Shown piece after piece: positions 521 to 63,041 of a DNA stretch of 64,000 nt. The notes under the pieces were generated by a model. It made no database searches, had not been told where the DNA came from, and saw only the letters and a program-made list of their open reading frames with translations. Each line of letters opens with the position of its first letter. Position 1 is the first letter of the stretch. Position numbers and translations under genes: made by a program. The stretch is from an uncultured Gemmatimonadales bacterium (GTDB taxonomy: Bacteria > Gemmatimonadota > Gemmatimonadetes > Gemmatimonadales > Gemmatimonadaceae): positions 768,001-832,000 of the forward strand of contig CAWKNZ010000002.1 of assembly GCA_963851265.1 (NCBI GenBank), written 5' to 3'.

Positions 521-528
521 GGGACGTG

Positions 529-1038
529 TTAGGCGGGGGGGAGCGTCTCGCCGAGCACGGCGTCGCGGCGCGCCTCGCGGCGGGCCTGCAGCCGCGCGCG
601 GAGCGCGGCGTCGCCGGCGGCGAGGAGCTCCGCGGCGAACAGCGCCGCGTTGATCGCGCCCGGCTTCCCGACCGCGAACGTTGCGACCGGCACGCCGCCC
701 GGCATCTGCACGATCGAGAGGAGCGCGTCGACCCCGTTGAGCAACGTCGCCGGTACGGGCACGCCGAGGATTGGCACGAGCGTCTTGGCGGCGAGCATCC
801 CGGGCAGGTGGGCCGCGCCGCCGGCTCCGGCGATGATCGCTCGCAGACCCCGCGCCTGCGCCTCCTCGGCGTACCGGAACAGCAGGTCGGGCGTGCGGTG
901 CGCGCTGACCACGCGCGCCTCGTGCGCGACGCCGAGGTCGGCGAGCGCGGCGGCGGCGTGGCGCATGACCTCCCAGTCGCTCGTGCTGCCCATGACGACG
1001 CCGACGAGCGGCGGGGCGGGGGAGGAGAAAGCACTCAT
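529..1038 (-). CDS. purE: N5-CAIR mutase
   Basis: [40 protein letters not shown] motifs; start moved to ATG 1038. Confidence 0.96.
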
Positions 1039-1127
1039 GGCGCGGGAAAATAGTCGTCCCGGGCCGCCGCGAGCGCCGTGAAGCCGCGTGGTGCCGTCCA
1101 CGGTATGCGGGCAGGCGCGGGTGGCGG

Positions 1128-1646
1128 GTGGTGCATCTGTTCGGCCCCGGCCACACCGATGTCCAACTCGCCCGGACCCATCTGGCCCACAGCCTGCTGG
1201 GCCTCGGGCGGTACGCGGCCGCGGAGTCGCTGTTCATGGCGGCGCGCGCAGCGCGGCGGGCGCTCTCCGGGCCGGATGACGGTGCGGTTGCCTCGCCCCT
1301 CACCGACCTCGGCACGCTCGCCCTTCAACGCGGGGAGCTGCCCGCCCCCGAAGCGTACTTCGCCGATCCCGCCGCGATCTTCGATCGCGCGGGCGCGAAA
1401 CCGTTCGCCATCACGGCGCGCGTGCGGCTCGTCCGGGTGCTGTTCGTTCGGGATTCGGTGGGCGAGGCGACCCGGACGCCCAGGGCGGTGCTGGACGCGT
1501 TGCGGACCGGACCGCCGGTGCGGAACGCGAAGGTGGTGATCGCGCTACGCGCGGCGGGCGACGCGGCGATGAGCCGCGGCGCGGCGGGCACGGCCGACTC
1601 GCCCGGCGCGGCCGCGACGGCCCGCGCGCTCGGTGGTTCGCCGTGA
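1128..1646 (+). CDS. Short TPR-repeat-like protein or remnant
   Basis: [19 protein letters not shown] and [14 protein letters not shown] resemble TPR repeats; no clear start context. Confidence 0.45.
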
Positions 1647-1724
1647 GCGCCGCGATGCGGGCTGCGACTCAGCGGGCGTTCCGCTTCGCGGCGGCGTTCG
1701 CAGGCCGCCCGTGCCTAACGCAAA

Positions 1725-1774
1725 ACATCCGACCGTTGCACCGCCCCCCGGGGGGCGGTGCAACGGTCGGATGT
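1725..1774 (-). terminator. Perfect 50-bp palindrome after tRNA-Asn; probable intrinsic terminator
   Basis: acatccgaccgttgcaccgcccccc|ggggggcggtgcaacggtcggatgt, with a short T-run on the minus strand. Confidence 0.75.
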
Positions 1775-1892: not shown

Positions 1893-4823
1893 TCAACCCG
1901 CGGCGAGGCGCCGCGCGCGCGTCCGCTTGCCTTCGACCGGCGCGGTGACTCCGTCCGCCGCGTCGCGATCCTCCGGCGCCGGCACCGGCGATTTCAGCAC
2001 GCGCTGCAGGAAGCGCCCGGTGTGCGACCGCGGCTCGGCCATGACGGCCTCGGGCCGCCCCATCGCCACGATCTGCCCGCCCTCGTCACCCGCTTCCGGG
2101 CCCACGTCGATCACCCAGTCCGCGAGCTTGATCACGTCGAGGTTGTGCTCGATCAACAGCAGCGTGTGCCCCGCGTCGACCAGCCGGTCGAACACCTGCG
2201 CGAGCTTGCGCACGTCCTCCAGGTGCAACCCCGTGGTCGGCTCGTCCATCACGTACAGCTTGCGCCCCTTGCTCTTGGCCGACGCGGCCAGCTCGCGCGC
2301 GATCTTCACGCGCTGCGCCTCGCCGCCCGAGAGCGTCGTCGCCGGCTGGCCGAGGCGCAGGTAGCCGAGCCCCACCTGCTGCAGCTGCCAGAGCGCCTGC
2401 CCGAGCTTCTCCTCGCGCGGGAAGAAGCGGATCGCCTCGTCCACGGTCATGCCTAACACGTCGTGGATCGTCTTCCCGCGCACCGCGACCTCGAGCACGT
2501 CGGCCTTGAACCGCTTGCCGCCGCACACGTCGCACGGCACGAACACGTCGGCCATGAACACCATCTCGACCTCGACGTAGCCCGCGCCCTCGCACGCCTC
2601 GCAGCGCCCGCCCTCGCTGTTGAACGAGAACGTCCCCGGCGTGTACCCGCGCTGCCGCGCCAGCGGCTGCTCGGCGAACAGCCGGCGAATCTCGTCGTAC
2701 GCCTTCACGTACGTGACCGGATTGGAGCGCGGCGTGCGGCCGATCGGGCTCTGGTCGACGAGCACCACGTCGTCGAGCGCCTCCCACCCCGAGAGCGTGT
2801 CGAACGCCCCCACGCGCTCGCCGAGGTGCTGCTTGGCGGAGTGTTCGCCGTGCAGCCGCTCTTCGAGCGCGCGGTAGAGCACGTCGTGCACGAGGGTGCT
2901 CTTGCCCGAGCCCGACACGCCGGTCACCACCGTCATCGCGCCTAACGGGACGCGCACGTCGGCGCCCTTGAGGTTGTGCTCGCGAGCGCCGGTGAGCGCG
3001 AGCCAGCGCGGGCCCACGCGCCGCCGCTCGCGCGGCAGCGGGACCGTCCGCGCGCCGGTGAGGTACTGGCCCGTGAGCGGGCTCTCCGCGACCCGGTCGA
3101 GGGTGCCCGCGAAGACGAGCTCGCCCCCCTGCTCGCCGCTCCCCGGCCCGAGCTCGACCATGTAGTCGGCGACCTCGATCGCCTCGGGGTCGTGCTCGAC
3201 CACCAGCACCGTGTTGCCGCCGTCGCGCAGCCGGTGCAGCAGCCGCAGCAGCCGCTCCATGTCGCGCGAATGCAGTCCCACGCTCGGCTCGTCGAGCACG
3301 TAGAGTGTGTCGACCAGGCGCGCGCCCAACGAGTTGGCGAGCCCGATCCGCTGCGCCTCGCCGCCCGAGAGCGTCCGCGTCGCGCGGTTGAGCGAGAGGT
3401 AGCCGAGGCCGACGTCGCAGAGGAAGCGCACGCGCCCGCGCGCCTCCTCGAGCACGTGCGCGGCGACCTGCCGCTCGAAGTCGGTGAGCGCGACGCCGTC
3501 GAGCCACTCGATGAGGCGGCCCACGGGCATCGCGGCCGCGTCCGCGATCGTCGCGCCGCCGAAGCGCACGGCGAGCGCCTCGGGCTTGAGCTTCGTGCCG
3601 TGGCACGTGGGGCACTCCTGCGCCGTCTGGTACTGCCGCAGGAAGACGCGGATGTACTGCTTGTAGCGCTTCTCCTCCTTCGACCGCAGAAACGGGAACG
3701 CGCCGAGGAAGCCGTTCGCGCCGCGCCCCTCGGCGCGCAGCACGCGCTCCTGCTGGGCGCGCGGCAGCTCCCGCCACGGCGCGTCCGGGTCGATCCGCTC
3801 GCGCCGCGCGAACTCGAGCAGCTTGCGCCGCTCGGCCTCGTAACGCGGCTTCTCCCACGGATCGACCGCGCCGCCTCGGAGCGACCGGTCGGCGTTCGGC
3901 ACGATCAGCCGCTCGTCGTACTCGAGCACCGCGCCGAAGCCGTTGCACGTCTCGCACGCGCCGCGCGGGTTGTTGAACGAGAAGAGTTGCGGCGACGGGG
4001 CGGGGAGGCGGGTGCCGTCGTTGGGGCACTCGTAGCGCTCGGTCGCGTTCACGCGCGTGATCGGCCGCCCGGCCGACTCCGGCAGCGGCGAGGGCACGGG
4101 CTCGGCGAACAGGACGGTCGCGTCGCCGTCGCCCTCGCGGAAGGCCGTGCCTAACGCGTCGGAGAGCCGCGAGCGCGCGTCCTCGCGGACGGCGAGGCGG
4201 TCGACCACGACGAGCAGGTCGCCGACCGCGGTCAGGTCGAGGCCGCGGGCCGCGACGTCGTCGAGGTGCAGCGTCTCGCCGTCGGCCACGACGCGGACGA
4301 AGCCCTGCGCGCGCAGGTTCTCGTCCACGATCGCGTGCGTGACCTTGGACGAGAGCCGCAGCGGGAACGCGACCGCGAACCGCGTGCCCTCGGGCACGCG
4401 GTAGAGCAGGTCGGTGATCGACTCCACCGAGTCGGGCTTGAGCTCGCGCCCGCACACGGGGCAGTACGTGCGGCCGACGCGCGCCCAGAGCAGCCGCAGG
4501 TAGTCGTACACCTCGGTCGCCGTGCCCACCGTGGAGCGCGACGTCTTGGTCGGGTTCTTCTGCTCGATCGCGACGGCGGGCGAGAGCCCCTCGATCACGT
4601 CGACGTCCGGCTTTTCCATCCGTTCGAGGAACTGGCGCGCGTACGCGCTCAGCGACTCGACGTAGCGACGCTGCCCCTCGGCGTAGATCGTGTCGAAGGC
4701 GAGCGTCGACTTGCCGGACCCCGACGGCCCGGTGATCACGGTGTAGCTCCGGCGCGGGATCTCGAGGTCGAAGCCCTTGAGGTTGTGCTGCCGCGCGCCG
4801 CGGACGATGATGCGATCTTTCAC
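1893..4823 (-). CDS. uvrA: Excinuclease ABC subunit A
   Basis: GARQHNLK, two Walker A ([16 protein letters not shown]), two LSGGEAQR, zinc-finger CxxC pairs. Confidence 0.97.
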   Translation of the reverse strand: MKDRIIVRGARQHNLKGFDLEIPRRSYTVITGPSGSGKSTLAFDTIYAEGQRRYVESLSAYARQFLERMEKPDVDVIEGLSPAVAIEQKNPTKTSRSTVGTATEVYDYLRLLWARVGRTYCPVCGRELKPDSVESITDLLYRVPEGTRFAVAFPLRLSSKVTHAIVDENLRAQGFVRVVADGETLHLDDVAARGLDLTAVGDLLVVVDRLAVREDARSRLSDALGTAFREGDGDATVLFAEPVPSPLPESAGRPITRVNATERYECPNDGTRLPAPSPQLFSFNNPRGACETCNGFGAVLEYDERLIVPNADRSLRGGAVDPWEKPRYEAERRKLLEFARRERIDPDAPWRELPRAQQERVLRAEGRGANGFLGAFPFLRSKEEKRYKQYIRVFLRQYQTAQECPTCHGTKLKPEALAVRFGGATIADAAAMPVGRLIEWLDGVALTDFERQVAAHVLEEARGRVRFLCDVGLGYLSLNRATRTLSGGEAQRIGLANSLGARLVDTLYVLDEPSVGLHSRDMERLLRLLHRLRDGGNTVLVVEHDPEAIEVADYMVELGPGSGEQGGELVFAGTLDRVAESPLTGQYLTGARTVPLPRERRRVGPRWLALTGAREHNLKGADVRVPLGAMTVVTGVSGSGKSTLVHDVLYRALEERLHGEHSAKQHLGERVGAFDTLSGWEALDDVVLVDQSPIGRTPRSNPVTYVKAYDEIRRLFAEQPLARQRGYTPGTFSFNSEGGRCEACEGAGYVEVEMVFMADVFVPCDVCGGKRFKADVLEVAVRGKTIHDVLGMTVDEAIRFFPREEKLGQALWQLQQVGLGYLRLGQPATTLSGGEAQRVKIARELAASAKSKGRKLYVMDEPTTGLHLEDVRKLAQVFDRLVDAGHTLLLIEHNLDVIKLADWVIDVGPEAGDEGGQIVAMGRPEAVMAEPRSHTGRFLQRVLKSPVPAPEDRDAADGVTAPVEGKRTRARRLAAG

Positions 4824-5227: not shown

Positions 5228-5365
5228 CTGAAACCTCCAACGAACGGTGTGTGGTGCGCGGTGGTGCGGGTGGCGTGCGGGACGTCGAATAGCAACGCGC
5301 GTACCAGACCGCGCGTACGCCGCAACCGTAGCGGGTGCGCCACAATCGACTACCCTTCGTGACCC

Positions 5366-7327
5366 ATGGCGACCGCCCCGACCACAGACGCGCCCGACGA
5401 CGAAGCGCTCGCCGCGGCGTACGACGCGCGCCTCATGCGGCGCCTGCTCCGGTACGCGCGCCCGTACGCGGCACTCGGCGTCGGCGCCGTCCTGCTGCTC
5501 TGCCTGGAGGGCGGCACGCAGCTCGTTGGGCCCGCGCTCACGCGGCGCGTCATCGACGTCGCGATCCCGGCCCGCGACGCCGGCATGGTGCGCACCGCGG
5601 CGCTGCTCTACATGCTCGCACTCGCGTTACAGTTCGGCGCGGGTTACGGCGAAACGGTGCTCACCGGCCTCCTCGGCCAGCACGTCATGCGCGACCTGCG
5701 CGGGCAGCTGTTCGCGCACCTGCAGCGCCTCCCGATCGCGTATTTCGACCGCACGCCGGTGGGGCGCCTCGTCACGCGCGTGACGGGCGACGTCGAGGCG
5801 CTCAACGAGCTGTTCACCGCGGGCGTCGTCGCCGGGCTCGGCGACCTGTTCACGCTCGCCGCGATCTCGGTGATGATGCTCGCCGTCGACTGGCGGCTCG
5901 CGCTCGCGGCCTTCGTCGTCATCCCGTTCGTCGTGCTCGTCTCGCGCGTGTTCCAGCGCCGCGTGCGCGCGCTCTACCGCGACATCCGCACGCGCGTCGC
6001 GCGCATCAACGCGTTCGCGCAGGAGCGCCTAACGGGACTCCGCGTCGTGCAGCTGTTCGGGCGCGAACGCGGCGAGCGCGCGCGGTTCGACGTGCTCAAC
6101 CAGTCGCACCTGCAGGCGCAGCTCCGCTCCATCACCGTCTACGCGCTGTACTTCCCGGCGATCGAGGTGCTCACGACGGTCGCGCTCGCGAGCCTGCTCG
6201 TCGGCGCGGCGGGGCGCGTCGGGGCGGGCACGCTCACCATCGGCACCGTCGCGGCGTTTCTACAGCTCGTACGCCGCTTCTTCCAGCCGCTGCAGGACCT
6301 GTCCGAGAAGTTCAACATCCTGCAGGCCGCGATGGCGGCCGCCGAACGCATCTTCGGGCTGCTCGACACCCCCACCGAGCCCGACGCCGGCGCGGCCGCG
6401 GCGGCCGCCGACGCCGCGCACGCGGCCGGCGCGCTCCCGCGGGGCGTCACGGTCGAGTTCGAGGACGTGTGGTTCGCCTACGACCTCGCGCACACCGCGG
6501 CCGGCACGGCCGGCGCGGACGCGTCGAAATCCGAACACCCCGAATGGGTGCTCCGCGGCGTCAGCTTCCGGGCGGAGCCGGGCGAGACGCTGGCCCTCGT
6601 CGGGCACACCGGCGCGGGCAAGTCGACCATCGTCGCGCTCCTCCTGCGCTTCTACGACCCGCAGCGCGGGCGCATCCTGCTCGACGGCGTCGACGTGCGC
6701 ACGCTCCCACGCGAGCTCGTGCGCGCGCGCGTCGGGTACGTGCAGCAGGACATCTTCCTCTTCGCCGGCGACGTCGCCTCCAACGTGCGGCTGTCGGCGC
6801 CGATCACCGACGCGGCGCTCGACGAAGCAGCCGCCCGCGTCGGCGCCGACCGCGTGGTGCGCCGACTCCCGGGCGGCTGGAACCACGAACTCGGCGAGCG
6901 CGGCGCCACGCTCAGCGTGGGCGAACGCCAGCTGCTCTCGTTCGCGCGGGCGATCGCGGCCGACCCGGCGCTGCTCGTCCTCGACGAAGCCACGAGCGCC
7001 GTCGACAGCGAGGCCGAGGCGGTCATTCAGGACGGGCTCGCGTCGCTGCGCCAGGGGCGGACCACGATCGCGATCGCGCACCGGCTCTCGACCATCGTCG
7101 ACGCCGAACAGATCCTCGTGCTCCACCACGGGCGCGTCGTCGAGCGCGGCACCCATCGCGCACTGCTCGCGCGCAACGGCCTCTACGCGCGGCTGTACCG
7201 GTTGCAGATCGCCGACGCCGCGCAGGACGCCGACTCCGACGACGCGGCCGCGGACGACGGCGTAGCGGGGACGCGCTCGGGGAGCGGTGGCCGCGCCCTG
7301 CTTGCTCCCTCCGGAACGCGCCCGTAG
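5366..7327 (+). CDS. ABC exporter, fused permease/ATPase (MdlB-like)
   Basis: TM domain, GHTGAGKS, LSVGERQ, LVLDEATS, IAHRLST. Confidence 0.93.
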   Translation: MATAPTTDAPDDEALAAAYDARLMRRLLRYARPYAALGVGAVLLLCLEGGTQLVGPALTRRVIDVAIPARDAGMVRTAALLYMLALALQFGAGYGETVLTGLLGQHVMRDLRGQLFAHLQRLPIAYFDRTPVGRLVTRVTGDVEALNELFTAGVVAGLGDLFTLAAISVMMLAVDWRLALAAFVVIPFVVLVSRVFQRRVRALYRDIRTRVARINAFAQERLTGLRVVQLFGRERGERARFDVLNQSHLQAQLRSITVYALYFPAIEVLTTVALASLLVGAAGRVGAGTLTIGTVAAFLQLVRRFFQPLQDLSEKFNILQAAMAAAERIFGLLDTPTEPDAGAAAAAADAAHAAGALPRGVTVEFEDVWFAYDLAHTAAGTAGADASKSEHPEWVLRGVSFRAEPGETLALVGHTGAGKSTIVALLLRFYDPQRGRILLDGVDVRTLPRELVRARVGYVQQDIFLFAGDVASNVRLSAPITDAALDEAAARVGADRVVRRLPGGWNHELGERGATLSVGERQLLSFARAIAADPALLVLDEATSAVDSEAEAVIQDGLASLRQGRTTIAIAHRLSTIVDAEQILVLHHGRVVERGTHRALLARNGLYARLYRLQIADAAQDADSDDAAADDGVAGTRSGSGGRALLAPSGTRP

Positions 7328-9484: not shown

Positions 9485-10783
9485 TCAGCCCGCCAGCAAC
9501 GGCGTCCCCGTCCGCAGCATCGCGCGCACCTCGTCGGCCGGACGGCGCAGAAGCGCGAGCAGGCGGTCACGCGGCACCTCCACCCGCGCCGCCGCGCCGC
9601 GCGCGACGAACACGCGCAGCCACCGCGCCGAGCGGTAGAACTGCTCGGCGAGCGTCGGCAGGTTGATCGCGCCCTCCCACCCGGCGGCGGTGAGGCGGGC
9701 GACCTCGCCCCCGCGCCGCAACACGAGCAGGTCCAGGCCGAGCATCTGCGTCTTGGCCGGGTAGTCGAGCAGCAGCGCGCCGGGCGCGAGCCCGAGCTCG
9801 CGCCCGATCGCGTCCTCGGCCGCGGTCGCGAGCCCGTGGTCCGCGGCCACCCAGTCTCCCAGTCCGTCCGGGAATTCCGCGGCCGGGCACTCGAGCGCGC
9901 GCTTGTACAGGCGCCGCGCGCGCAGGTCGTCGCGCAAGGCCGCGACCGTCGGCGGCACGCCGTCGCCGTCGAGCGCGTGCAGCGCGCCCTCGTCCGTGTA
10001 CCCGGCGAGCGTCGGCAGGTCGAGCACGCGCGCGGCGAGCGCGTCGGCCACGAGCCGCTTGTACATCGCCGTCGCGCTGCGCACCGCGTGATGCCAGTAC
10101 ACGTTGCGGTACATCTGGTACTTGGCGAACAACAGCGACTCGAGCGCTGACAACCCCTTCTCGCGAAGCCCGATCGTCGGGCGTCCGGTGCTCGGGTCGT
10201 CGAGGACGACGAAGGCGTTCAGCAGGCGGTCGACGTCGACCTCGCCGTACGGCACGCCGCACATGCGGGCGTCGCGCTTGAGGTACTCGATCTTGTCGAG
10301 GTCGAGCGAGCCCGAGATCAGTCCGCGTAGCGGGCTCGCGCTCGTCCCGCGCACCAGGGCGTGTACGCGCTCGGGGGCGTCGGGCGCGACGTGCGTGCGG
10401 AGCACGTCGGCGACCACGCCGCCGCAGAGCAGCGGGCGGGCCACGTCCTCGTGGTGCGGCAGCCCGATCTCCTCGAGCGCGTGCGAGAACGGGTAGTGCC
10501 CGACGTCGTGCAGCAGCGCGGCCGCGCGCACCACGGCCGGCTCGTCCGCCGGCACCGCGCCGAGCGCGCCCTCGGCCGCGAGCATGTCGAGCGTGACGCC
10601 GGCGAGGTGGTAGGCGCCTAACGTGTGCTCGAAGCGCGTGTGCGTCGCGCCGGGGTAGACGAGGTACGCGAGGCCGAGCTGGCGCACGTAGCGGAGCCGC
10701 TGGAACACAGGCGTGTCGATGAGCGCGAGCGCGGTGGCGTCGACGCGGATGTTGTCCCAGAGCGGGTCACGGATGATCTCCAC
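9485..10783 (-). CDS. HD-domain phosphohydrolase (dNTPase-like)
   Basis: FQRLRYVRQLG, YPGATHTRFEH, LLHDVGH, DLDKIEYLKRD, MYRNVYWH; GTG start at 10783. Confidence 0.9.
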   Translation of the reverse strand: MEIIRDPLWDNIRVDATALALIDTPVFQRLRYVRQLGLAYLVYPGATHTRFEHTLGAYHLAGVTLDMLAAEGALGAVPADEPAVVRAAALLHDVGHYPFSHALEEIGLPHHEDVARPLLCGGVVADVLRTHVAPDAPERVHALVRGTSASPLRGLISGSLDLDKIEYLKRDARMCGVPYGEVDVDRLLNAFVVLDDPSTGRPTIGLREKGLSALESLLFAKYQMYRNVYWHHAVRSATAMYKRLVADALAARVLDLPTLAGYTDEGALHALDGDGVPPTVAALRDDLRARRLYKRALECPAAEFPDGLGDWVAADHGLATAAEDAIGRELGLAPGALLLDYPAKTQMLGLDLLVLRRGGEVARLTAAGWEGAINLPTLAEQFYRSARWLRVFVARGAAARVEVPRDRLLALLRRPADEVRAMLRTGTPLLAG

Positions 10784-12795: not shown

Positions 12796-14427
12796 CTACC
12801 CCTTGGGACCGGCGCGCTTGATCTCGTCGCCGACGCCCGGTCCGAACTTCTCCATGTTCTGACGGAACATCTCGGCCAGCTTCCTCGCCTGCTCGTCGTA
12901 CGCGCCGGCGTCGGCCCACGTCCCGCGCGCGTCGAGCACCGCCGAGGGCACGCCTTCGACTTCGCGGGGGACCGCGAGACCGAACATGGGATCCACCGTC
13001 GTCGGCACCTGGTCGAGCGCGCCGGACAGTGCCGCGCGGACCATCGCGCGCGTGTGGCTGAGCTTCATCCGCGACCCGACGCCGTAGCGCCCGCCGCTCC
13101 ACCCGGTGTTCACGAGCCAGACGCGCGACCCGTGCTCCGCGAGCTTCGCGCCTAACATCTCGGCGTATTTCGTCGGGGGCCACACGAGGAACACCGCGCC
13201 GAAGCACGCCGAGAAGGTCGCCTGCGGCTCGGTCACGCCGCGCTCGGTGCCGGCGACCTTGGCCGTGTAGCCCGAGAGGAAGTAGTACATCGCCTGCTCG
13301 GGCGTGAGCTTCGCGATCGGCGGCAGCACGCCGAACGCGTCGGCCGTCAGGAAGATCACCGTCTTCGGGTGTCCGCCGCGGCCGCCGCGCACGTGGTTCT
13401 GGATGTAGGGCAGTGGGTAGCTCGCGCGCGTGTTCTCCGTGATGCTCTGGTCGTCGAAGCGCACGCGGCGCTTGTCGTCGAGCACGACGTTCTCGAGGAC
13501 CGTGCCGAACATCTGGGTGGTGCGGAAGATGTCGGGCTCGCCCTCGGGCGAGAGGTTGATCGCCTTCGCGTAGCAGCCACCCTCGAAGTTGAACACCCCC
13601 TCGTCGCTCCACCCGTGCTCGTCGTCCCCGACGAGCGCACGCTCCGGGTCGGCCGAGAGCGTCGTCTTGCCCGTGCCCGACAGGCCGAAGAAGAGGGCCG
13701 TGTCGCCCGCGTCGCCCACGTTGGCCGAGCAGTGCATCGAGAGCACGCCCTGCTTCGGCATCAGGTAGTTCATGATCGTGAACATCGCCTTCTTCAACTC
13801 GCCCGCGTAGCGCGTGCCGCCGATCAGGATCGTGCGGCGGCCGATGTGCACGACGATGAACGTGCCCGTGCGCGTGCCGTGGCGCGCCGGGTCGGCCTGC
13901 ATCTCGGGCGCGTGCAGTACCGTGAAGTTGGGCGCGAACTCCGGCAGCTCGGCCGGCTCGGGGCGGATGAACATGTTGCGCACGAACAGCGCGTGCCACG
14001 CGTTGGGCAGCACGTAACGTACCGACAGGCGGTGGGCCGGGTCGGCGCCGCAGTACAGGTCCTGCACGAACAGCTCGGGGAGCGTGCCGAGGTGCGCGCG
14101 CACGTCATCGAGCAGCGCGTCGAAGTGTGCGTCGGTCATCGGCTGGTTCACCTTGCCCCAGTCGACGTCGAACTCGCTCGACGGCTCGCGCACGACGAAC
14201 TTGTCGTTGGGCGAACGCCCCGTGTGCGGCGACGTCACGGCGACGAGCGGGCCCATGTCGGCCAGCCGCCCCTCGCCGCGGCGGACGGCGTCCTGGACCA
14301 GTTCGGGCGCGACGAGGTTCCAGTGCACGGTGCCCGCGGGCGTCACGCCGACCGCGGCAAGTCCGCCGGCGCGCGTGGCGCGCGCGTCGATCGCCGCCGG
14401 CGCGTCGGGACGGGTGAGAGTGGCCAT
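12796..14427 (-). CDS. pckA: Phosphoenolpyruvate carboxykinase (ATP)
   Basis: [42 protein letters not shown]. Confidence 0.97.
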
Positions 14428-17331: not shown

Positions 17332-19776
17332 ATGTCTCGCTTTCTCGCGCGGCGCGCGCGCGCGCCGCGGAGTCGCGGCGGCCGCATCCGTCGCGCGCCG
17401 GTCGCGTTCGTCATCACGGCGGCGGTCACGCCCCTTGCCGCCCGCCTCGCGCACGCCGCGCCGCCCGATTCGACGGCCGGCCGCCGCGTAGTCGCCGCCC
17501 CGCCTGTGGTCGGTGTGGTGCGCGACTCGATGGGGCAGCCCCTCTCGAACGTGCAGGTCGTGATCGCCACGCTCAATCGTGGCACGACCACCGATGAGCG
17601 TGGCGCGTTCGAGTTTCGCGGCCTCGCCGCGGGACGGTACCACGTCGACGCCCTGCTCATCGGCTACCGGCGCGCGGACCTCGACATCGTCGTGCCGACG
17701 AGCGGACCCGACGTACGGGTCACGATCGTGATGCGGCGGACCGCGCTGCAACTGCAGAACGTGGTCGTCACGGCCACTCCCGTCGGCGCCGACCCGCTCC
17801 GGCTGACGCAGAGCACCGTCTCGCTCTCGGGCAAGGAGCTCGCGCGCAACCTCGGGTCGAGCGTGGCGCAGACGCTGAGCAACGAGCCCGGCATGGCCAT
17901 GCGGTTCAACGGACCGGCGGCGAACGTGCCGGTGATCCGCGGGCTGTCGGGCGAGCGCATTCTCGTGCTGCAGGACGGGAACCGCGCGGGCGACCTCTCC
18001 TCCGCCGCCGCCGACCACGGGCTGTCGATCGATCCGCTCGTCTCCAACCGGATCGAGGTCGTACGCGGGCCTGCCTCGCTCCTCTATGGCACGAACGCGC
18101 TCGGTGGCGTGGTGAACGTGATCTCGAACGACATCCCGACCGACATGCCGCGCCGCACCGACGGCTTCGTGTCGACCAACCTCGAGTCGGTGAACCCGGG
18201 TGGCGCGGTTGCGGGCGGCGTCACGACCCCGATCACGGACGCGGTGGTGGCGAACGTGCGCGGCTCGTTCCGCAGCACGAGCAACCTGTACCAGGGTGGC
18301 GGCGCGCGGCTCGACAACAGCTACAACCGCAACCAGAACGGCCTCGCCGCGCTCGGCTACGTCGGCGACAAGATTCACGCCGGCCTCGCCTACTCGGCCT
18401 ACAACTTCGACTACGGGCTGCCGTTCGCGCCGGGAGACGACCCGTCGCACATCGTGGGGCTGCGGCAGGAGGTGAAGGGGCGCGCCGACCTGTCGTTCGA
18501 GAACCCGATCGTCGACCAGCTGCGCGTGGACGGCACCGCGCAGTGGTACCACCACAGCGAGATCGCGAGCGACGGCGCGGTCGGCACGCGTTTCGGGCTG
18601 CGCACGCAGACGCTGAACGCGACCGCACGCACGCACGTCGGCCCGCTCGACGGCGCGGTCGGCCTGCAGGGGCTGCTGCGTCAGTACACGGCGACCGGCG
18701 CAGAAGCGCTCACGCCCGCGGCCAACACGGTGAACGGGGGCCTGTTCGTCTACCAGGAGCTGCCCCTCACGGGCGCGCGCGACACGAGCGTCGGCGCGGC
18801 GCACGGGAACGACGAGCACGGGAACGGCATCCGCCTTCAGTTCGGCGGTCGCGCGGACGCGTTCCAGCTCAGGACGGTCGCGAGCGACCTGCCCAAGTTC
18901 GGCAGCGCGCGCACGCGCTCGTTCGACAACTTCTCCGGATCGTTAGGCCTGTCGTTCCCGCTGGCCGAGCGTACGACGTTCGGCGTGAGCGCGGCGCGGT
19001 CGTTCCGCGCGCCGTCCGTCGAGGAGCTGTACTCGAACGCGTTCCACGCCGCGGTCGGGACGTACGACGTCGGCGACCCCAACCTCAAGGCCGAGACGGA
19101 CCAGGGCTTCGACGGCGTGCTGCGCACCCAGCGCGGCCGCGTCGACGCGCAGGTCTCGGCGTACTACAACCGGATCAACAACTACATCACGCCGAACGTC
19201 GTCGGCACGGTGGACGCGACCACGGGCCAGGCGGCTACGGGCGCCGGCAGCGTGCCGCTGAACGTCTACACGCAGCGCGACGCGCGGCTGTACGGCGCCG
19301 AGGGACGCGTCGAAGTCGAGGCGGCGCCCCACGTCGTGCTCGGCACGACGGGCGACCTCGTGCGCGGCAACTTCACCCAGGGCATCGCGAGCGCGCTGCC
19401 GTACCTGCCGCCCGCCCGACTCGGCGTGAACGCGCGCTACGACGACTCGCGCTACTCGCTCTCGGCCGAAGTGCGCCATGCGTTCGCGCAGACCCGCACG
19501 TCGCAGCCGTCGTGCGCGACCGGCCCGATTCTCGGACCCACGGGGAGCGGGAACACGCAGGACGGGACGCCCTGCCTCGACATCCCGGCGTCGGCGTACA
19601 CGCTCGTCAATCTCAGCGCCGGCGTCACGCTCAGTCGCGGGCCGATGCTGCACACACTCACCCTCCGCGCGGACAACCTGCTCGACCGCCGGTACGTGGA
19701 CGCGACGAGTCGGATCAAGTATTTCGCGTACAACCCCGGGCGCGATATCGCGTTGGTGTATCGGGTGCAGTTCTGA
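17332..19776 (+). CDS. TonB-dependent receptor, probably for a transition metal (ZnuD-like)
   Basis: N-terminal carboxypeptidase-regulatory-like domain, VVVTA, RIEVVRGPASLLYG...GGVVN plug, RAPSVEELYSNAFH, terminal Phe. Confidence 0.93.
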   Translation: MSRFLARRARAPRSRGGRIRRAPVAFVITAAVTPLAARLAHAAPPDSTAGRRVVAAPPVVGVVRDSMGQPLSNVQVVIATLNRGTTTDERGAFEFRGLAAGRYHVDALLIGYRRADLDIVVPTSGPDVRVTIVMRRTALQLQNVVVTATPVGADPLRLTQSTVSLSGKELARNLGSSVAQTLSNEPGMAMRFNGPAANVPVIRGLSGERILVLQDGNRAGDLSSAAADHGLSIDPLVSNRIEVVRGPASLLYGTNALGGVVNVISNDIPTDMPRRTDGFVSTNLESVNPGGAVAGGVTTPITDAVVANVRGSFRSTSNLYQGGGARLDNSYNRNQNGLAALGYVGDKIHAGLAYSAYNFDYGLPFAPGDDPSHIVGLRQEVKGRADLSFENPIVDQLRVDGTAQWYHHSEIASDGAVGTRFGLRTQTLNATARTHVGPLDGAVGLQGLLRQYTATGAEALTPAANTVNGGLFVYQELPLTGARDTSVGAAHGNDEHGNGIRLQFGGRADAFQLRTVASDLPKFGSARTRSFDNFSGSLGLSFPLAERTTFGVSAARSFRAPSVEELYSNAFHAAVGTYDVGDPNLKAETDQGFDGVLRTQRGRVDAQVSAYYNRINNYITPNVVGTVDATTGQAATGAGSVPLNVYTQRDARLYGAEGRVEVEAAPHVVLGTTGDLVRGNFTQGIASALPYLPPARLGVNARYDDSRYSLSAEVRHAFAQTRTSQPSCATGPILGPTGSGNTQDGTPCLDIPASAYTLVNLSAGVTLSRGPMLHTLTLRADNLLDRRYVDATSRIKYFAYNPGRDIALVYRVQF

Positions 19777-20810: not shown

Positions 20811-20889
20811 GACGTGCAAGCTAGCCGCCCCACTCCGGCCGAGCGCCGAGCCGTCGCGGCCTGACTAACCGCGTCGTCCCGCTCGCGCC

Positions 20890-30468: not shown

Positions 30469-30505
30469 GGCCCCGCGCGCCACCCCGTCCCGAAAACCGC
30501 GGCCG

Positions 30506-34073: not shown

Positions 34074-34286
34074 GACGGCGGCCCTCAAAGCGGATGGTGA
34101 ACCCGCCGCGCGCCGGCGACCGGCGAACGCGGCAGTGCGTGAACTTACGTCCCGTGATGAAACCCCGCACAGCCAGCGATGGTTGCCACGGGTGCCCACG
34201 ACGCGTGCAACTCTCGGGCGCGGCGCCAGCAGGGCGCGTCGCGGCCCGCTGACGCCGCGCCCGACTCACAGTTACGCATTCGCCCG

Positions 34287-47822: not shown

Positions 47823-49658
47823 ATGCAGATTCGTAACATCGCCATCATCGCGCACGTCGACCACGGCAAGACGACACTCGTCGACAAGATGCTCCGCCAG
47901 GGCGGCGCGTTCCGTGAGAATCAGGTCGTGCAGGAGCGCGTGATGGACTCGAACCCGCTCGAGCGCGAGCGCGGCATCACGATCCTCGCCAAGAATACGA
48001 GTGTCCACTGGAAGGACACGAAGATCAACATCGTCGACACCCCCGGCCACGCCGACTTCGGCGGCGAGGTCGAGCGCATCCTGCGCATGGTCGACGGCGT
48101 GCTGCTCGTCGTCGACGCGTTCGACGGGCCGATGCCGCAGACCCGCTTCGTGCTCGGCAAGGCGCTCGCGTTAGGCCGCACGCCGATCGTGGTCATCAAC
48201 AAGATCGACCGCCCGGGCGCGGACCCGCTCCGCGTGCACGACGAGGTCCTCTCGCTCTTCATCGAGCTCGAAGCCGACGAGGCCCAGCTCGAAGCGCCGG
48301 TCGTCTACGCGTCGGCCAAGGACGGCGTCGCGACGATGGACCTCGACACGCCGGCCGTCGATCTCGCGCCGCTCTTCGACACGATCGTCGGCACCGTGCC
48401 GCCGGCACCGAGTGATACGGATGCGCCGTTTCAGATGCTCGTGTCGACCATCGACTACTCGCCCTACCTCGGGCGTCTGGCCATCGGACGCATCGAGCGC
48501 GGCACCGCGCGGCTCGGCGACTCGGTCGCGCTCATCCCGCTCGAGCCGACACGCGCGCCCGAGCGCGCGCGCGTGACCAAGCTCTACCGCTTCGAAGGGC
48601 TTGAGCGCGTCGAGGTCGAGACCGCACCCGCGGGCGAGGTCGTCGCGATCGCGGGCATGGAGGGCGTCGAGATCGGCTCCACGCTCACCGACCCCGAGCA
48701 TCAGGAGCGTCTGGCCGGCATCTCGGTCGAAGAGCCGACGATTTCGGTCGACTTCCTCGTGAACAACTCGCCCTTCGCTGGCAAGGAGGGCAAGTACGTC
48801 ACGTCGCGCCAGGTGCGTGACCGCCTCTACAAGGAGCTGGAGCGGAACGTCGCGCTCCGCGTCGAGGACACAGATTCGACCGACGCCTGGCAGGTGGCCG
48901 GCCGCGGCGAGCTGCACCTTTCCATTCTGATGGAGACGATGCGCCGCGAGGGCTACGAGTTCCAGGTCTCGCGGCCGCGCGTCATCACGCGCACCGGCGT
49001 GAACGGCGAACGGCTGGAGCCGTACGAAGAGCTCGCCATCGACGTGCCCGAGGACTACCTCGGCGCGGTGATGGAGAAGCTCGGGCAGCGCCGCGCCGAG
49101 TTGATCGAGATGAAGAACCCCGGTCAGGGGCTCGTGCGCTTGATGTACCGCATCCCCGCGCGCGGTCTGTTCGGCTACCGCTCGGAGTTTCTCACCGACA
49201 CGCGCGGGACGGGAATCATGCACCACAACTTCCTCGAGTACGGGCCGTGGGCCGGCCCGCTCGCCGGGCGGAGCCGCGGCGTGCTCATCTCGATGGAAGC
49301 GGGGAGCATCGTCGGGTTCGCGCTGATGAACCTGCAGGAGCGTTCCACACTCTTTGTGTCGCCCGGCGACGCAGTGTACGAGGGCATGGTCGTCGGCGAG
49401 AACTCGCGTCCGGGCGATATGGACGTCAACCCGACGAAAGAAAAGAAGCTCTCGAACATCCGTACGAAATCGAGCGACGAAAACGTCTCGCTCGAGCCTC
49501 CGCGCGTGTTGACCCTGGAATCGGCACTCGAGTATATCGAGGACGACGAGTTGATCGAGGTCACGCCGCAGAGCATCCGCTTACGGAAGCGCATGCTGGC
49601 GGCGAGCGACCGCAAGCGTGTCACGCGCGACGCCAAACGCGAGCGCGCGGCGGTCTGA
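47823..49658 (+). CDS. typA: Translational GTPase TypA/BipA
   Basis: [40 protein letters not shown]. Confidence 0.97.
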
Positions 49659-50424: not shown

Positions 50425-50642
50425 TGTCCTTCCCCGGCAGCGCAAACACAGCGCATGTCGAACGGGACGGAGCAAAACGTTGTTTGACAATCGAGAGATC
50501 GAGGTCGTGCGATGGCCCTCAATGATCCGGCGCGCTGGTTCGCGTCGGGGAGAGGTCAAGACCACGAAGAACATGATTCCGGACGCAATCTCATTTGCGT
50601 CTACGTGAATGGGATGGCGTTTGGGAATGAGCAGACATTCTC

Positions 50643-52174
<1,532 letters not shown>

Positions 52175-58501: not shown

Positions 58502-58541
58502 GGCGTCCGCCCCGTGGGCCGCCGTTAGGCGCGCGGGTGTC

Positions 58542-59677: not shown

Positions 59678-60334
59678 ATGACCCGAGAGACGACGTTGGA
59701 CCGCCTGCGCGACCCCTTTGCGCCCGAAGATATCGAATGGCGCGTGCAGCAGGCCGGCGAGAAGAATGGCAAACCGTGGGCACGCGTGCTCGCGTACGTC
59801 ACTAATCGTGCGATCCAGGAGCGACTCGACCACGTCGTCGGGCCCGAGAACTGGCAGAACTCGTTCCGTGAGGGTCCGGCCGGCGGCGTTGCATGCGGCA
59901 TCGCCATCCGCGTCGCGCGCCCGGATGGCACTGCCGACTGGGTGACGAAGTGGGATGGCGCGGAGAACAGCGACGTCGAAGCCGTCAAGGGCGGCTTTTC
60001 GAACGCGATGAAGCGCGCCGCGGTTCAGTGGGGCATCGGCCGGTACTTGTACGACCTCGACGAGGGCTGGGCGCGCGTCCACGACGGCGGCCGCTTCTCG
60101 GCGAAGTCCAAAGACGGCAGCTGGTTCAAGTGGGATCCGCCGGAGTTGCCGGCCTGGGCGACGCCTCAGCCGCGGCTCGCCAGCGCGGAGCAGGTCGAGA
60201 GTATCGAGGCGCTGCTCGGCCGTCTTGCGGACGAGCGTGTCGCCGCGAGCGTCCGACGCCGGCTCGCGGGTGGTCTCACCGAACAGGCCGCGCAGGACGC
60301 GGCGCGCTACCTCGAGTCGCGGCTCGCCGCGTAG
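59678..60334 (+). CDS. Rad52/Rad22-family single-strand annealing protein (DdrA/Sak-like)
   Basis: PFAPEDIEWR, AYVTNRAIQERLD, KGGFSNAMKRAAVQWGIGRYLY; AAGGA RBS. Confidence 0.88.
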   Translation: MTRETTLDRLRDPFAPEDIEWRVQQAGEKNGKPWARVLAYVTNRAIQERLDHVVGPENWQNSFREGPAGGVACGIAIRVARPDGTADWVTKWDGAENSDVEAVKGGFSNAMKRAAVQWGIGRYLYDLDEGWARVHDGGRFSAKSKDGSWFKWDPPELPAWATPQPRLASAEQVESIEALLGRLADERVAASVRRRLAGGLTEQAAQDAARYLESRLAA

Positions 60335-60455
60335 TTTCGCGCCAGGATCAACCCGGGTGAACGCCCGCGGCCGGTGACGGCCGCGGGCGTTCGCGCGTCG
60401 GGCCGACATGCTGAACACCTCTCGGATCTTGCGTCATCGCGCGCGATCGCGCGCG

Positions 60456-62132
60456 ATGAACGCCCTCGGCTCCACGACGCTGGCCGCGCTCCTGTCCCTC
60501 GGCTGTCGGGCCGAACACGCTCCGTCTCAGAGCGGCGCGGCCGGCGGCACGTTGGTCATCGCCACGGCCGGCGACGCCGACGCGCTGGTTCCGCCGCTCG
60601 TGTCGTCGCTGCAGGGCGCGCAGGTCACGGCCCAGCTGTTCGACCGCCTCGCCGAGCCCGACTCGACGCTCGAGACGGCGGGCGATACGCACTTTCGGCC
60701 GCGGCTCGCGCGGAGCTGGCGGTGGGCGGAGGACTCGCTCTCGATCGCGTTCGCGATCGACCCGCGCGCGCGGTGGCACGACGGGCGGCCCGTCACCGCG
60801 CGCGACGTCGCGTTCAGCTACGCGTTGACCGTCGATCCGAAGACCGCCAGCCCGTTCGCACCGCTGCTGTCGGGGATCGATTCCGTGGTCGCGCGCGACT
60901 CGCTCACCGCGGTCTTGTGGTTCAAGCAGCGAAGCCCCCGGCGATTCTTCGACGCGACGTACCAGCTGTGGGTGCTCCCCGAGCACCTGCTGCGCGACGT
61001 GCCGCGTGACCAGCTCGCCGCATCGGCGTTCGCGAGACATCCGGTCGGCTCGGGACGCTTTCGGTTCGCGTCGTGGACACCGGGGCAGCAGATCGCGCTC
61101 GTGGCGGACACGGCGAACTACCGCGGCCGCCCGGGCCTCGACCGCGTGATCTGGGCGGTGTCGGCAGATCCGGGGGCCGCGACCCGACGCCTCGTCTCGG
61201 GGGAGGCCGACGTGTGGGAGCAGTTGCGAGGCGACGGACTCGCGCAGGTGGCCCGCGTGCCGGCGCTCCGGACGGTGAGTTACTCGTCGATGGACGTCGG
61301 GTACCTCGCGTTCAACCTGCAGGATTCGACCGGTCGCGCGCACCCGCTGTTCGGCGACCGGGCGCTGCGGCGCGCGCTGGCGGCGTCGATCGATCGCACG
61401 AGCGTGGTGCGCAACGTGTTCGACACGCTCGCGTACGCCACGGCCGCCCCGCTGCCGCGAACCGTCTCCGGCCTGGACGGCCGAGCGGCGGCCGCGTTCG
61501 GGCCGACGTACGACCCGGCCGTGGCTGCGGCGACGTTGGACAGCCTCGGTTGGCACGTCGCGCCTGGCGGGATGCGGGTGCGTGCGGGGCGGCCGTTGCG
61601 GTTCCGGATCCTGGTGCCGACGACGAGCAGCGTTCGCCAGCGGCTCGCGGTCCTATTGCAGACGCAGTTCGCGCGCGTGGGCGCCGCGGTCGACATCGAC
61701 GCGGTCGACCCTGCGGCGTTCGGGCGCGCGCTGCAGACGCGCCGGTACGACGTGATCCTGAACGCGTGGCACAGCGACCCGTCGCCGACGACCATCGTGC
61801 AGCAGTGGGGCGCACCGGGCGCGGCCGGGCGCGGTTCGGCCAACGTGACCGGTTACCGCAGCGCGGCATTCGATTCCCTGGTGGACCGGGCTGCGGCGGC
61901 CGGGGCCCGGCCGGACGCGGCGGCGCGCTGGGCGGAGGCGTTCGCTTCGCTCGCCGACGACGCGCCGGCAGTCTGGCTGTACGAGCCGCGGATGATCGCA
62001 GGCATCCACCGTCGCATCCAGCCGAGCGGGCTCCGCGCGGACGCGTGGTGGGCGAACCTCGGCGACTGGCGCATCGCGCCGGGGCAGCAGATCGCGCGCG
62101 ATCGGGTGCCGTTGACCGTCGCGGCGCGCTAA
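60456..62132 (+). CDS. Peptide ABC transporter substrate-binding lipoprotein (family 5)
   Basis: LSLGC lipobox; WHDGRPVTARDVAFS, PVGSGRF, LRRALAASIDR. Confidence 0.9.
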   Translation: MNALGSTTLAALLSLGCRAEHAPSQSGAAGGTLVIATAGDADALVPPLVSSLQGAQVTAQLFDRLAEPDSTLETAGDTHFRPRLARSWRWAEDSLSIAFAIDPRARWHDGRPVTARDVAFSYALTVDPKTASPFAPLLSGIDSVVARDSLTAVLWFKQRSPRRFFDATYQLWVLPEHLLRDVPRDQLAASAFARHPVGSGRFRFASWTPGQQIALVADTANYRGRPGLDRVIWAVSADPGAATRRLVSGEADVWEQLRGDGLAQVARVPALRTVSYSSMDVGYLAFNLQDSTGRAHPLFGDRALRRALAASIDRTSVVRNVFDTLAYATAAPLPRTVSGLDGRAAAAFGPTYDPAVAAATLDSLGWHVAPGGMRVRAGRPLRFRILVPTTSSVRQRLAVLLQTQFARVGAAVDIDAVDPAAFGRALQTRRYDVILNAWHSDPSPTTIVQQWGAPGAAGRGSANVTGYRSAAFDSLVDRAAAAGARPDAAARWAEAFASLADDAPAVWLYEPRMIAGIHRRIQPSGLRADAWWANLGDWRIAPGQQIARDRVPLTVAAR

Positions 62133-62198
62133 GCCGGCGGGCTCAAGTGCCCGGCACTCCGGCGTAGCGCGGGGTGCGATCGGGGGCGAAGTTGAGGC

Positions 62199-63041
62199 GT
62201 GCCGACCGAATCGCCCCCCGCGCCCGTCACGGCGTCCGCGTTCGCCGGCGGCGGGCCGGCCGTACGCGAGACGCACATCCCGGTCTTGCCCAAGCGACTG
62301 GCCCGCGCGCAGTTCGCGTCGCAACTGTATCAGCACCTGCCGGCGGTGCTGACGGTGCTGGCAGCGGGCGTGAGCGCGATCCAGTCCGAGCGGGAGGGGG
62401 GCGCGGTCGCGCTCGCCGTGGTGGAGCTCGTGGTCGGCGGGTGGGTGCTGTTCACCATCGCGCAGGAAGCGCGGCACCTGTTCCGGCGTCGGACGCCGAG
62501 TCGTGCCGGGGACGCGTCGCACGCGACACACGACGCGCACGACGCGCACGCCTCGGCGTGGATCGACACGCCCGGGCTGGCGGCCGCGGCGCTCGGCTAC
62601 GTGGAGGTGTGGCACCACGCGCACGAGGTCGGGCATTTCAAGTTGGTGAGCCCCTACATGCTCGGCGCGACGGCAACGCTGTTTCTCGCGTTAGGCGGTC
62701 GACGCCTGATCGCCAACCGGATGCGGCACCGTCGCCCGCACCTGCGCGTCACGACGACGACCGTGACGTATCGCGGCGGCCGGCGCAGGCGGTGGACCGC
62801 CGACTGGGCGGACGTCGCGTCGGTCGAGGACGGCCCGGGCACCGTGACGTTCCGCATGCGGGACGGGCGTGCGCACGCGCTCCGCGAGGACGAGCACCTG
62901 AACGGCGGGGCGTTGCTCGCCGCGGCGAGGGCGGCGGTCGCGGAGCACGCACCGGCGCACGTCGCGGCCGACCGCGCGGCGCCTGGGGCGGGGCCGCACG
63001 CGCCCGGGTCGTCGCCCGAGCACGCGCTCAGCCGCCCTTGA
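62199..63041 (+). CDS. Hypothetical membrane protein
   Basis: About four hydrophobic segments and a soluble C-terminal domain; GAGG before GTG. Confidence 0.65.
   Translation: MPTESPPAPVTASAFAGGGPAVRETHIPVLPKRLARAQFASQLYQHLPAVLTVLAAGVSAIQSEREGGAVALAVVELVVGGWVLFTIAQEARHLFRRRTPSRAGDASHATHDAHDAHASAWIDTPGLAAAALGYVEVWHHAHEVGHFKLVSPYMLGATATLFLALGGRRLIANRMRHRRPHLRVTTTTVTYRGGRRRRWTADWADVASVEDGPGTVTFRMRDGRAHALREDEHLNGGALLAAARAAVAEHAPAHVAADRAAPGAGPHAPGSSPEHALSRP

Follow-up and report, generated by a model that had tools for sequence, protein, structure and literature searches.

GTTAGGC, a hyper-abundant DNA-level word in scattered Gemmatimonadales genomes and a possible self tag of the uptake type

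Why should a seven-letter word that costs a rare leucine codon recur in gene after gene of a genome very rich in G+C? The question is raised by a stretch of 64,000 nucleotides (G000:C2:768001-832000, hereafter the window) from the genome of an uncultured soil bacterium of the Gemmatimonadales (G000; 4.60 Mb in 12 contigs, 72-74% G+C), through which the heptamer GTTAGGC and its reverse complement GCCTAAC are scattered. A first-pass annotation, drawn from the letters of the window alone, had counted 20 exact copies by eye and had proposed a non-palindromic, lineage-specific word maintained at the level of the DNA itself. A pattern search recovered all 20 of them at the positions given, eight as GTTAGGC on the plus strand and 12 as GCCTAAC, where 100 dinucleotide-preserving shuffles of the window gave 2.03 on average (standard deviation 1.27, maximum 5) and none reached 20. 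As set out below, GTTAGGC is a DNA-level signal and not a codon effect, and we tentatively read it as a self tag of the DNA-uptake type.

The excess extends over the whole genome. G000 holds 1,762 copies, against expectations of 396.5, 159.8, 96.1 and 126.5 under Markov models of order 0, 1, 2 and 3, respectively; these orders were used because the word's own 6-mers carry the excess, which hides it from a ranking at maximal order. The zero-order figure agrees with the five to six copies per window that the first-pass annotation had roughly estimated, and under orders 1 and 3 GTTAGGC is the highest-ranked 7-mer of the genome. The mean spacing is about one copy per 2.6 kb, the density is 0.33-0.55 per kb on all 12 contigs, and 885 copies lie on the plus and 877 on the minus strand. 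TTAGGC is preceded by G in 98% of cases, and TTAGG is followed by C in 93%. Position -1 of the dispersed copies is occupied by C in 79% and by T in 14%, position +1 by G, A, C and T in 54, 22, 19 and 5%, respectively, and beyond these two positions there is no conservation; written in full, the word is YGTTAGGC with any base except T after it. Coding and non-coding copies share these flank preferences. CGTTAGGC occurs 1,396 times in G000, compared to 58-83 expected.

Genes were called with our own codon log-odds caller, trained on open reading frames with a high G+C content at third codon positions (GC3); the calls, which are unvalidated, comprise 3,731 genes covering 90% of the genome, and 1,055 of these genes carry at least one copy. 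The 1,762 copies in G000 are placed as follows:

Sense, xxG-TTA-GGC: 993 copies (56%)
Antisense, xxG-CCT-AAC: 206 copies
Antisense, xGC-CTA-ACx: 78 copies
Sense, GTT-AGG-C: 25 copies
Wholly intergenic: 271 copies
On a gene boundary: 189 copies

The two remaining frames hold TAA or TAG, and there the word is itself the stop codon (GCC-TAA-C 114 times and xGT-TAG-GC 75 times, set beside 436 TAA and 746 TAG stops in the whole genome). TTA makes up 1.0% of the leucine codons (1,316), and 7.8% of the 12,792 Leu-Gly pairs are spelled TTA-GGC; a tRNA-Leu(UAA) gene is present. The first-pass annotation had named two comparisons beforehand, and neither went against it: GGC follows 1,000 of the 1,316 TTA codons, beyond what the frequency of Leu-Gly predicts, and shuffling synonymous codons within genes (30 shuffles) left 45.1±6.3 sense and 30.0±5.9 antisense copies, where 1,017 and 283 are observed. 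The spacers (470 kb, 73% G+C) contain 268 copies, compared to 25-33 expected from models trained on spacers, an 8-11 fold enrichment. Over the four frames without stops, the stop codons and the spacers, the enrichment is 8-22 fold.

Congeners share the word at its sites about twice as frequently as they share control 7-mers. In G004, G001 and G002 of the same genus, collinear counterparts of the window have 81-83% DNA identity with it, and they carry the word at 12/17, 8/16 and 11/17 of the aligned sites, respectively (unaligned sites were dropped). The corresponding retention is 29-34% for all 7-mers and 22-27% for phase-matched ones; the pooled retention of 31/50 sites gives P about 3e-6 in a binomial test against 0.30. 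Congener alleles without the word are mostly preferred spellings (CTC or CTG before GGC) or TTG. Together with the enrichment in frames, stops and spacers, this retention bears out the proposed maintenance at the DNA level.

A wider comparison is offered by uvrA, with orthologues from 28 genomes (G006 and G017, which have paralogs only, were left out, and G018 has no orthologous match). Two to five copies are found in 8/8 genomes rich in the word, as defined below, and none in 20/20 poor ones. At a conserved Ser/Ala-Leu-Gly site, TTA-GGC is present in G001, G002, G003, G008, G012 and G030 and TTG-GGC in G000 and G004, while 19 of the 20 poor genomes have Leu (CTS or CTT)-Gly and G005 has Ile-Gly; a second conserved Leu-Gly site has a like pattern. 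Taking the Leu-Gly sites of uvrA together, TTA-GGC occurs in the genus of G000 (g1), G008, G012 and G030, and other leucine codons or other codons occur in 20/20 poor genomes. Three further changes accompany the word: Ala-Val-Gly to Ala-Leu-Gly in genus g1, a conserved Tyr/Phe to Leu in G012, giving CGC-CTA-ACG, and GTT-AGG-CGC in G030 in place of the GTG-CGG-CGG of its family. Several lineages have thus written the word into the same conserved Leu-Gly positions of uvrA, in some cases with a change of amino acid.

In the window, the placements given by the first-pass annotation stand with our own gene calls: 14 of the 20 copies read xxG-TTA-GGC, others lie in different frames (CGC-CTA-ACG at 6027, GTT-AGG-C at 30315, ACG-CCT-AAC at 33081), one is the purE stop (528) and two are intergenic (1713, 58524). 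Its gene names purE, uvrA, pckA, nfo, lepA, mfd and typA are all NCBIfam matches above curated cut-offs. It was also right that other in-frame TTA codons are few: there are 19 in the window, 14 of them inside the word and the others at 5627, 14624, 34272, 49581 and 59433. The copies are, with the strand of GTTAGGC:

Copy 1, 528..534, plus: stop of purE (529-1038, minus), on the gene strand GCC-TAA-C
Copy 2, 1713..1719, minus: intergenic, between gene 1128-1646 (plus) and uvrA (1893-4823, minus)
Copy 3, 2451..2457, minus: uvrA, GTG-TTA-GGC (Val-Leu-Gly)
Copy 4, 2940..2946, minus: uvrA, CCG-TTA-GGC (Pro-Leu-Gly); word at the same site in G002, G003, G004, G008 and G012
Copy 5, 4149..4155, minus: uvrA, GCG-TTA-GGC (Ala-Leu-Gly); mostly Val in relatives outside the genus
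Copy 6, 6027..6033, minus: antisense, CGC-CTA-ACG, in an MsbA-like ABC transporter gene (5366-7327, plus; below curated cut-off)
Copy 7, 10616..10622, minus: ACG-TTA-GGC in an unnamed gene (9485-10783, minus)
Copy 8, 13150..13156, minus: pckA (12796-14427, minus), ATG-TTA-GGC
Copy 9, 18942..18948, plus: TCG-TTA-GGC in a TonB-dependent-receptor-like gene (17332-19776, plus; below cut-off)
Copy 10, 20097..20103, minus: nfo (19956-20819, minus), ACG-TTA-GGC
Copy 11, 24745..24751, minus: ACG-TTA-GGC in a gene like those of Cys/Met-metabolism PLP enzymes (23947-25200, minus)
Copy 12, 30315..30321, minus: GTT-AGG-C (rare Val and Arg codons) in a heptosyltransferase-like gene (29443-30483, minus)
Copy 13, 31031..31037, minus: lepA (30506-32347, minus), ACG-TTA-GGC
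Copy 14, 31841..31847, minus: lepA (30506-32347, minus), CTG-TTA-GGC
Copy 15, 33081..33087, plus: antisense, ACG-CCT-AAC (Thr-Pro-Asn), in an unnamed gene (32589-34088, minus)
Copy 16, 37168..37174, plus: GCG-TTA-GGC in gene 35408-37273 (plus)
Copy 17, 38828..38834, plus: mfd (37290-40718, plus), CGG-TTA-GGC
Copy 18, 48170..48176, plus: typA (47823-49658, plus), GCG-TTA-GGC
Copy 19, 58524..58530, plus: intergenic, between convergent genes 57518-58501 (plus) and 58542-59507 (minus)
Copy 20, 62690..62696, plus: GCG-TTA-GGC in an unnamed gene (62199-63041, plus)

Does the word have a direction? In the coding DNA of G000 the net ratio of sense to antisense copies is about 3.6 to 1, a bias that arises from which peptides can host the word, as the occupancy of compatible sites indicates:

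X-Leu-Gly, sense: 9.1% (988/10,901) of synonymous-compatible sites
X-Pro-Asn, antisense: 13.8% (202/1,464) of synonymous-compatible sites
[SGRC]-Leu-Thr, antisense: 4.0% (77/1,916) of synonymous-compatible sites
Val-Arg-[LPHQR], sense: 0.7% (26/3,495) of synonymous-compatible sites
Genes ending in Ala, as GCC-TAA-C, antisense: 14.3% (123/862)
Genes ending in Gly, Ser, Cys or Arg, as xGT-TAG-GC, sense: 6.1% (82/1,349)

Where a spacer separates co-directional genes, the copies number 79 in sense and 70 in antisense. GC skew (on C2) was too noisy for mapping the replichores directly, and the local gene-strand majority was used as a proxy; on contig C2 the orientation of the word tracks the strand of the gene, wherever along the contig a copy lies. 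Where one gene strand strongly predominates locally, minor-strand genes carry 13 sense copies and one antisense copy, those on the major strand 112 and 30, and the spacers there 14 co-oriented and 19 anti-oriented copies. From the occupancies and the counts in spacers and minor-strand genes it follows that the word is read or selected irrespective of transcription, and it is also independent of the direction of replication, as far as the gene-strand proxy goes. A separate observation concerns divergent spacers in G000, where the strands are split 42 to 15 (56 to 30 when a looser rule is applied); such an imbalance is not expected from strand symmetry, and it may be an artefact of our gene calls.

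The copies avoid each other. The spacing of adjacent coding copies was compared with that in 300 random draws of equal numbers of sites from the whole set of compatible Leu-Gly, Pro-Asn and Leu-Thr sites:

Less than 100 bp apart: 3 observed, 39.5±6.5 in random draws
Less than 200 bp apart: 10 observed, 76.9±8.8 in random draws
Less than 300 bp apart: 28 observed, 112±10 in random draws
Less than 500 bp apart: 89 observed, 178±12.5 in random draws

Below 150 bp the depletion is about ten-fold for direct, convergent and divergent pairs alike, and a mild excess follows at 500-2,000 bp. The avoidance is also present in G012, with nine gaps below 150 bp where a Poisson model gives 21.6 (100 kb, 1.25 copies per kb). 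A mutation or repair bias acting on each site by itself would not produce such spacing, which would instead arise if each site carried a cost while the benefit levelled off within a DNA segment.

The word is confined to scattered lineages of one order, in line with the lineage specificity proposed at the outset. A genome was called rich when its count of CGTTAGGC was 300 or more and no less than double that of a reversed control word; this control, stop-free in every frame, therefore does not match the word exactly in composition, and little weight should be put on the seeming depletion in poor genomes. Ten of the 31 relatives are rich, namely G000-G004 (genus g1), G008, G012, G017, G018 and G030, of which G012 has 6,360 copies and G030 comes from another family. 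Of 301 genomes sampled evenly across the phylum, each at least 80% complete, 12 are rich:

Family f1: 10/71 rich
Family f2: 2/125 rich, both of genus g72
Family f3: 0/3 rich
Outside the order: 0/102 rich

The genome counts take in four unpublished genomes, G011 among the relatives (including those for uvrA, intI, competence genes and methylase) and G078, G117 and G198 in the phylum sample, all of them motif-poor; nothing else in the analysis depends on these four. The trait is patchy even within genus g42, where G235 and G292 carry 3,896 and 4,141 copies of CGTTAGGC and G288 carries 66; this genus is the sharpest natural contrast for finding a reader. On a quick uvrA tree the rich label needs four changes, of which well-supported branches force at least two, and G030 nests among poor genomes of its family. 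In the surroundings of lepA, 1/21 loci with Gemmatimonad* in their titles is rich (nine copies in 6 kb), and 59 loci from other phyla together have 21 copies in 954 kb. The densest relative sampled, G012 (G012:C51:1001-101000), has only 60.6% G+C, and the edge of its word is slightly shifted (145 copies of CGTTAGG and 125 of GTTAGGC), with T or G favoured at position -2.

What, then, could such a word be for? The reading that we favour, at somewhat less than an even chance, is that YGTTAGGC may be a self tag of the DNA-uptake type, with a putative and probably portable specificity factor. It is favoured because of its match to published features of uptake sequences and its likeness to the cyanobacterial word HIP1. 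The accessible part of one account lists as such features the use of the cheapest coding frames, an excess in spacers, no chromosomal orientation bias, over-even spacing and conservation (PMC1939737), and the available portions of further papers agree on this anatomy (PMC2817400, PMC2397512, PMC3630211). Like the DNA uptake sequences (DUS) of Neisseriaceae and the uptake signal sequences (USS) of Pasteurellaceae, YGTTAGGC is a short, non-palindromic, exact word in hundreds to thousands of copies, which occupies the least costly gene frames, is in excess in spacers, is evenly spaced, is conserved between relatives and has no orientation bias, with respect to replication by the gene-strand proxy only. 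From a DNA-level, orientation-neutral and segment-wise selected word, the step to "uptake" is one that we infer. Among the functions that the first-pass annotation had listed, an uptake-type tag fits best, while polar signals of the kind of Chi and the FtsK orienting polar sequences (KOPS), to which it had likened the word, are disfavoured.

Under this uptake reading, a putative specificity factor of the type IV pilus/ComEA/ComEC apparatus would prefer double-stranded DNA that bears the word, much as the DUS of Neisseriaceae is read by the minor pilin ComP. Word-bearing DNA of kin would be imported and recombined more often than word-less alleles, and compatible sites (Leu-Gly, Pro-Asn, stop codons and spacers) would be converted over time despite the cost of a rare codon. 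One tag per incoming fragment would be enough, so that a second tag nearby would gain nothing and short-range avoidance would result, and lineages without the reader would lose the word at the synonymous rate, giving a patchy distribution. As in the hosts of DUS and USS, genes for a type IV pilus, a ComEA-like protein, ComEC and DprA are present in G000: ComEC (212 bits) and DprA (214 bits) both score above cut-off, there are three genes of the PilT family, one of them in the window at 45868-47352 (plus, 449 bits), a PilQ-like secretin reaches 250 bits, below the cut-off of 284, and an operon at G000:C7:759615-764501 comprises a comEA-like gene (HHH_3), pilB, pilT and pilC. Fragments of the R subunit of a type I restriction system lie beside this operon. 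The sequence of the ComEA-like protein changes quickly, with 63-84% identity within the genus compared to 91-95% for UvrA.

Several observations weigh against the uptake reading. Known uptake sequences have enriched near-matches, whereas variants with one mismatch in the 7-base core do not exceed expectation in G000, except for CGTTGGGC and CGTTCGGC, both of them ordinary, common codon contexts. Competence genes fail to separate rich from poor relatives (ComEC in 31/31, ComEA-like in 27/31 and PilQ-like in 28/31), so that the machinery is a permissive feature that does not discriminate. Dialects are typical of Neisseriaceae, according to the accessible part of PMC3630211, but no dialect word was found in 400 kb of the one poor relative sampled, G006, where no candidate exceeded a ratio of 4.0 (z 10.2); an equal-size sample of G000 gives z 42-50. 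Other differences from DUS and USS are the phylum, the lack of pairing of GTTAGGC into terminator-like inverted repeats and, as described below, its identity with an integron core. Transforming fragments are typically longer than the avoidance zone of about 300 bp. Finally, 45,086 bp of core genes at G000:C1:182877-227962 are without any copy, the longest gap in a genome with a mean spacing of 2.6 kb. The G+C content and GC3 of this desert are normal, and its genes include gidA/mnmG, parA, parB, mnmE and ordinary metabolic genes; dnaA (C1:11460-12997) sits in another gap, of 15 kb, on the same contig. An exclusion of the word from the origin/ParB region was considered and rejected, as copies are sparser, though not absent, in the orthologous region of G001 and G004, and in that of G012 their density is normal. 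Not being kept across relatives, the desert is taken as unexplained and not as a rule.

HIP1 (GCGATCGC), the highly iterated palindrome of cyanobacteria, is a hyper-abundant, conserved and quasi-periodic octamer whose function was long unknown and which, in the available text of PMC13756078, is now proposed to aid transformation. YGTTAGGC resembles it as an exact octamer spread in great numbers across genes, conserved and quasi-evenly spaced, with a patchy phylogeny, and its sharp all-or-none specificity would suit the recognition site of an enzyme. It could thus be the site of a methyltransferase or of some other enzyme that modifies DNA, maintained by selection or by biased repair, with the modified word serving a cellular process, possibly methylation-dependent transformation, an alternative that we regard as unlikely. 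HIP1 is a palindrome, a known methylase site and near-universal in its phylum, whereas YGTTAGGC is asymmetric and patchy within one order; a repair drive acting on single sites would not make copies avoid each other, and a search of G000 (94% complete) for a Vsr-type repair nuclease found none. The one methylase family surveyed, of the Eco57I type, was tried as a discriminator of rich and poor genomes and rejected, with a match in 29/31 relatives whatever their richness. The matches lie mostly in an open frame of about 1,000-1,180 residues, and the gene looks like a conserved chromosomal gene and not like a sporadic restriction system.

A site for an abundant nucleoid-associated protein, which would bind an asymmetric 8-bp sequence and occupy roughly 150-300 bp, is rather unlikely in our judgment. 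An array of such proteins could account for an exclusion of about 150-300 bp irrespective of orientation, followed by the mild excess at 500-2,000 bp, and for the variation in regional density, with the gidA-parAB-mnmE desert of 45 kb in G000 and a thin region in G001. This desert is not conserved, however, as G012 has the word in and next to parB; the repeated gain and loss of a central protein within a family, and even within genus g42, would be unusual, and no candidate protein is known.

The word has a further connection, with integrons, which the first-pass annotation had not noticed. The R' box of integron attC and attI sites has the consensus GTTRRRY, which GTTAGGC fits. In poor genomes the few copies cluster in arrays in which GCCTAAC, 72-136 nt and GTTAGGC form a unit that repeats every 500-650 bp (for example G021:C95:1-24000, G021:C43, G021:C80 and G019:C3). 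This layout is that of integron cassette arrays, whose attC sites combine an R'' (RYYYAAC) with an R' box (GTTRRRY). In these arrays of motif-poor relatives the R' core of the attC sites is the very heptamer GTTAGGC, and the flanks agree closely with those of the dispersed copies: among 34 oriented attC R' sites, 23 have C, 9 have T and 2 have A at position -1, and 19 have G, 8 have A, 7 have C and none has T at position +1. The dispersed copies are nevertheless not attC sites. They are without an inverse core partner (RYYYAAC 50-150 nt upstream), a hairpin-forming context, an array and dependence on intI; only eight attC-like pairs are found among the 1,762 copies of G000, on C2, C6, C9 and C10, and 26 of 1,750 adjacent pairs lie less than 100 bp apart.

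An integron integrase above the NCBIfam cut-off is encoded in 18/31 relatives, and over 41 genomes a full-length, stop-free intI is present in 10/19 rich and 13/22 poor ones, which indicates that the integrase is neither required for the enrichment nor incompatible with it. The idea that rich genomes lose intI because thousands of core sites would be dangerous was suggested by the first 31 genomes and rejected with ten more. In G000 itself, intI (C6:3005-6044, minus) is split, with model positions 2-265 at 5244-6044 and 260-313 at 3005-3166, and the insert contains a large serine recombinase gene on the plus strand (Resolvase, Recombinase and Zn_ribbon_recom domains); the intI of G012 is frameshifted over three frames, and that of G001 carries a TAG. 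Separately, true attC-like sites (inverse core, 73-121 nt, core) with duplicated spacer sequence were observed at G000:C10:179000-207000 and also at C6:1592-1708. C10 has the highest density of the word in G000 (0.55 per kb), and its sites are probably a small cassette array or an attC cluster without integrase.

Two explanations draw on this identity. The first, which we think quite unlikely as a whole, extends the uptake reading: the tag would have been co-opted from the integron, with the import machinery (or other machinery of self-recognition) of several Gemmatimonadales lineages preferring the word found at the end of every gene cassette in this order, so that kin and cassette DNA would be imported preferentially, transformation would be mechanistically coupled to gene capture, and the trait would be gained and lost repeatedly with a portable reader. 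The second, which seems to us very unlikely, holds that the dispersed copies are sites read by the integron integrase or a kindred tyrosine recombinase, for the docking of cassettes or as raw material for new ones. The shared heptamer, the agreement in flanks and the few true attC-like pairs in G000 would suit it, but the pairs are only eight among 1,762 copies, recombination cannot explain the synonymous in-frame installation in uvrA, lepA and similar genes, and presence of the word shows no link with that of intI, which is split in G000 and frameshifted in G012. Moreover, insertion into genomes by IntI1 needs only GWT, according to the available part of one study (10.1101/2022.09.11.507474).

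Chi sites, which stop or modulate a nuclease that processes DNA ends and so protect self DNA, typically have a net orientation along the direction of genes. Like Chi and KOPS, YGTTAGGC is an over-represented 8-mer of core genomes, including core genes, and its net coding orientation of about 3.6 to 1 would fit, but a Chi-like role is highly improbable: the bias is gone once the availability of peptides is counted, and it is also gone in spacers; genes on the minor strand do not switch orientation (by the gene-strand proxy for replichores); and neither RecC nor an alpha-type AddB was found in G000, which is 94% complete (other AddAB/AdnAB types were not searched). That the word has no function and is a by-product of codon-pair preference, translation or mutation bias, as 56% of copies (993/1,762) in the single frame xxG-TTA-GGC might suggest, is hardly credible, being contradicted already by the codon shuffles, the uvrA installations and the spacer enrichment, as well as by the 8-22 fold enrichment of the four stop-free frames, stops and spacers, the equal flank preferences of coding and non-coding copies, the amino acids changed to fit the word and the mutual avoidance of copies.

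The remark of the first-pass annotation that no function had been described for the word is in keeping with our literature searches, which covered publications outside subscription journals: among the papers listed they found no published description of GTTAGGC as such a word, and no paper joining Gemmatimon* with a DNA uptake sequence; a paper that has both GTTAGGC and integrons is unrelated by its title, and among papers on Gemmatimonad* and integrons or attC none concerns this word by title or abstract. Should the word prove to tag DNA for uptake, this phylum of soil bacteria, abundant and poorly tractable, would have its first such tag, its addition to constructs might make these bacteria transformable, and it would offer a third independent case, besides DUS/USS and possibly HIP1, on how tags arise. 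The patchy distribution, including that in g42, offers natural contrasts for finding the reader by comparative genomics, and the identity with the integron core, flank preferences included, suggests a connection of transformation with cassette capture that can be tested. In addition, the word is a ready marker for the binning of contigs and for spotting recently imported DNA in these genomes.

Apart from the word, the window contains a complete 16S rRNA gene at 50642-52174 (plus; Rfam RF00177, 1,476.6 bits), which explains a bin of low G+C at 48-52 kb. This gene may be unlinked from 23S, since the call that follows it downstream (52472-55114) is a protein-coding gene of the other strand.

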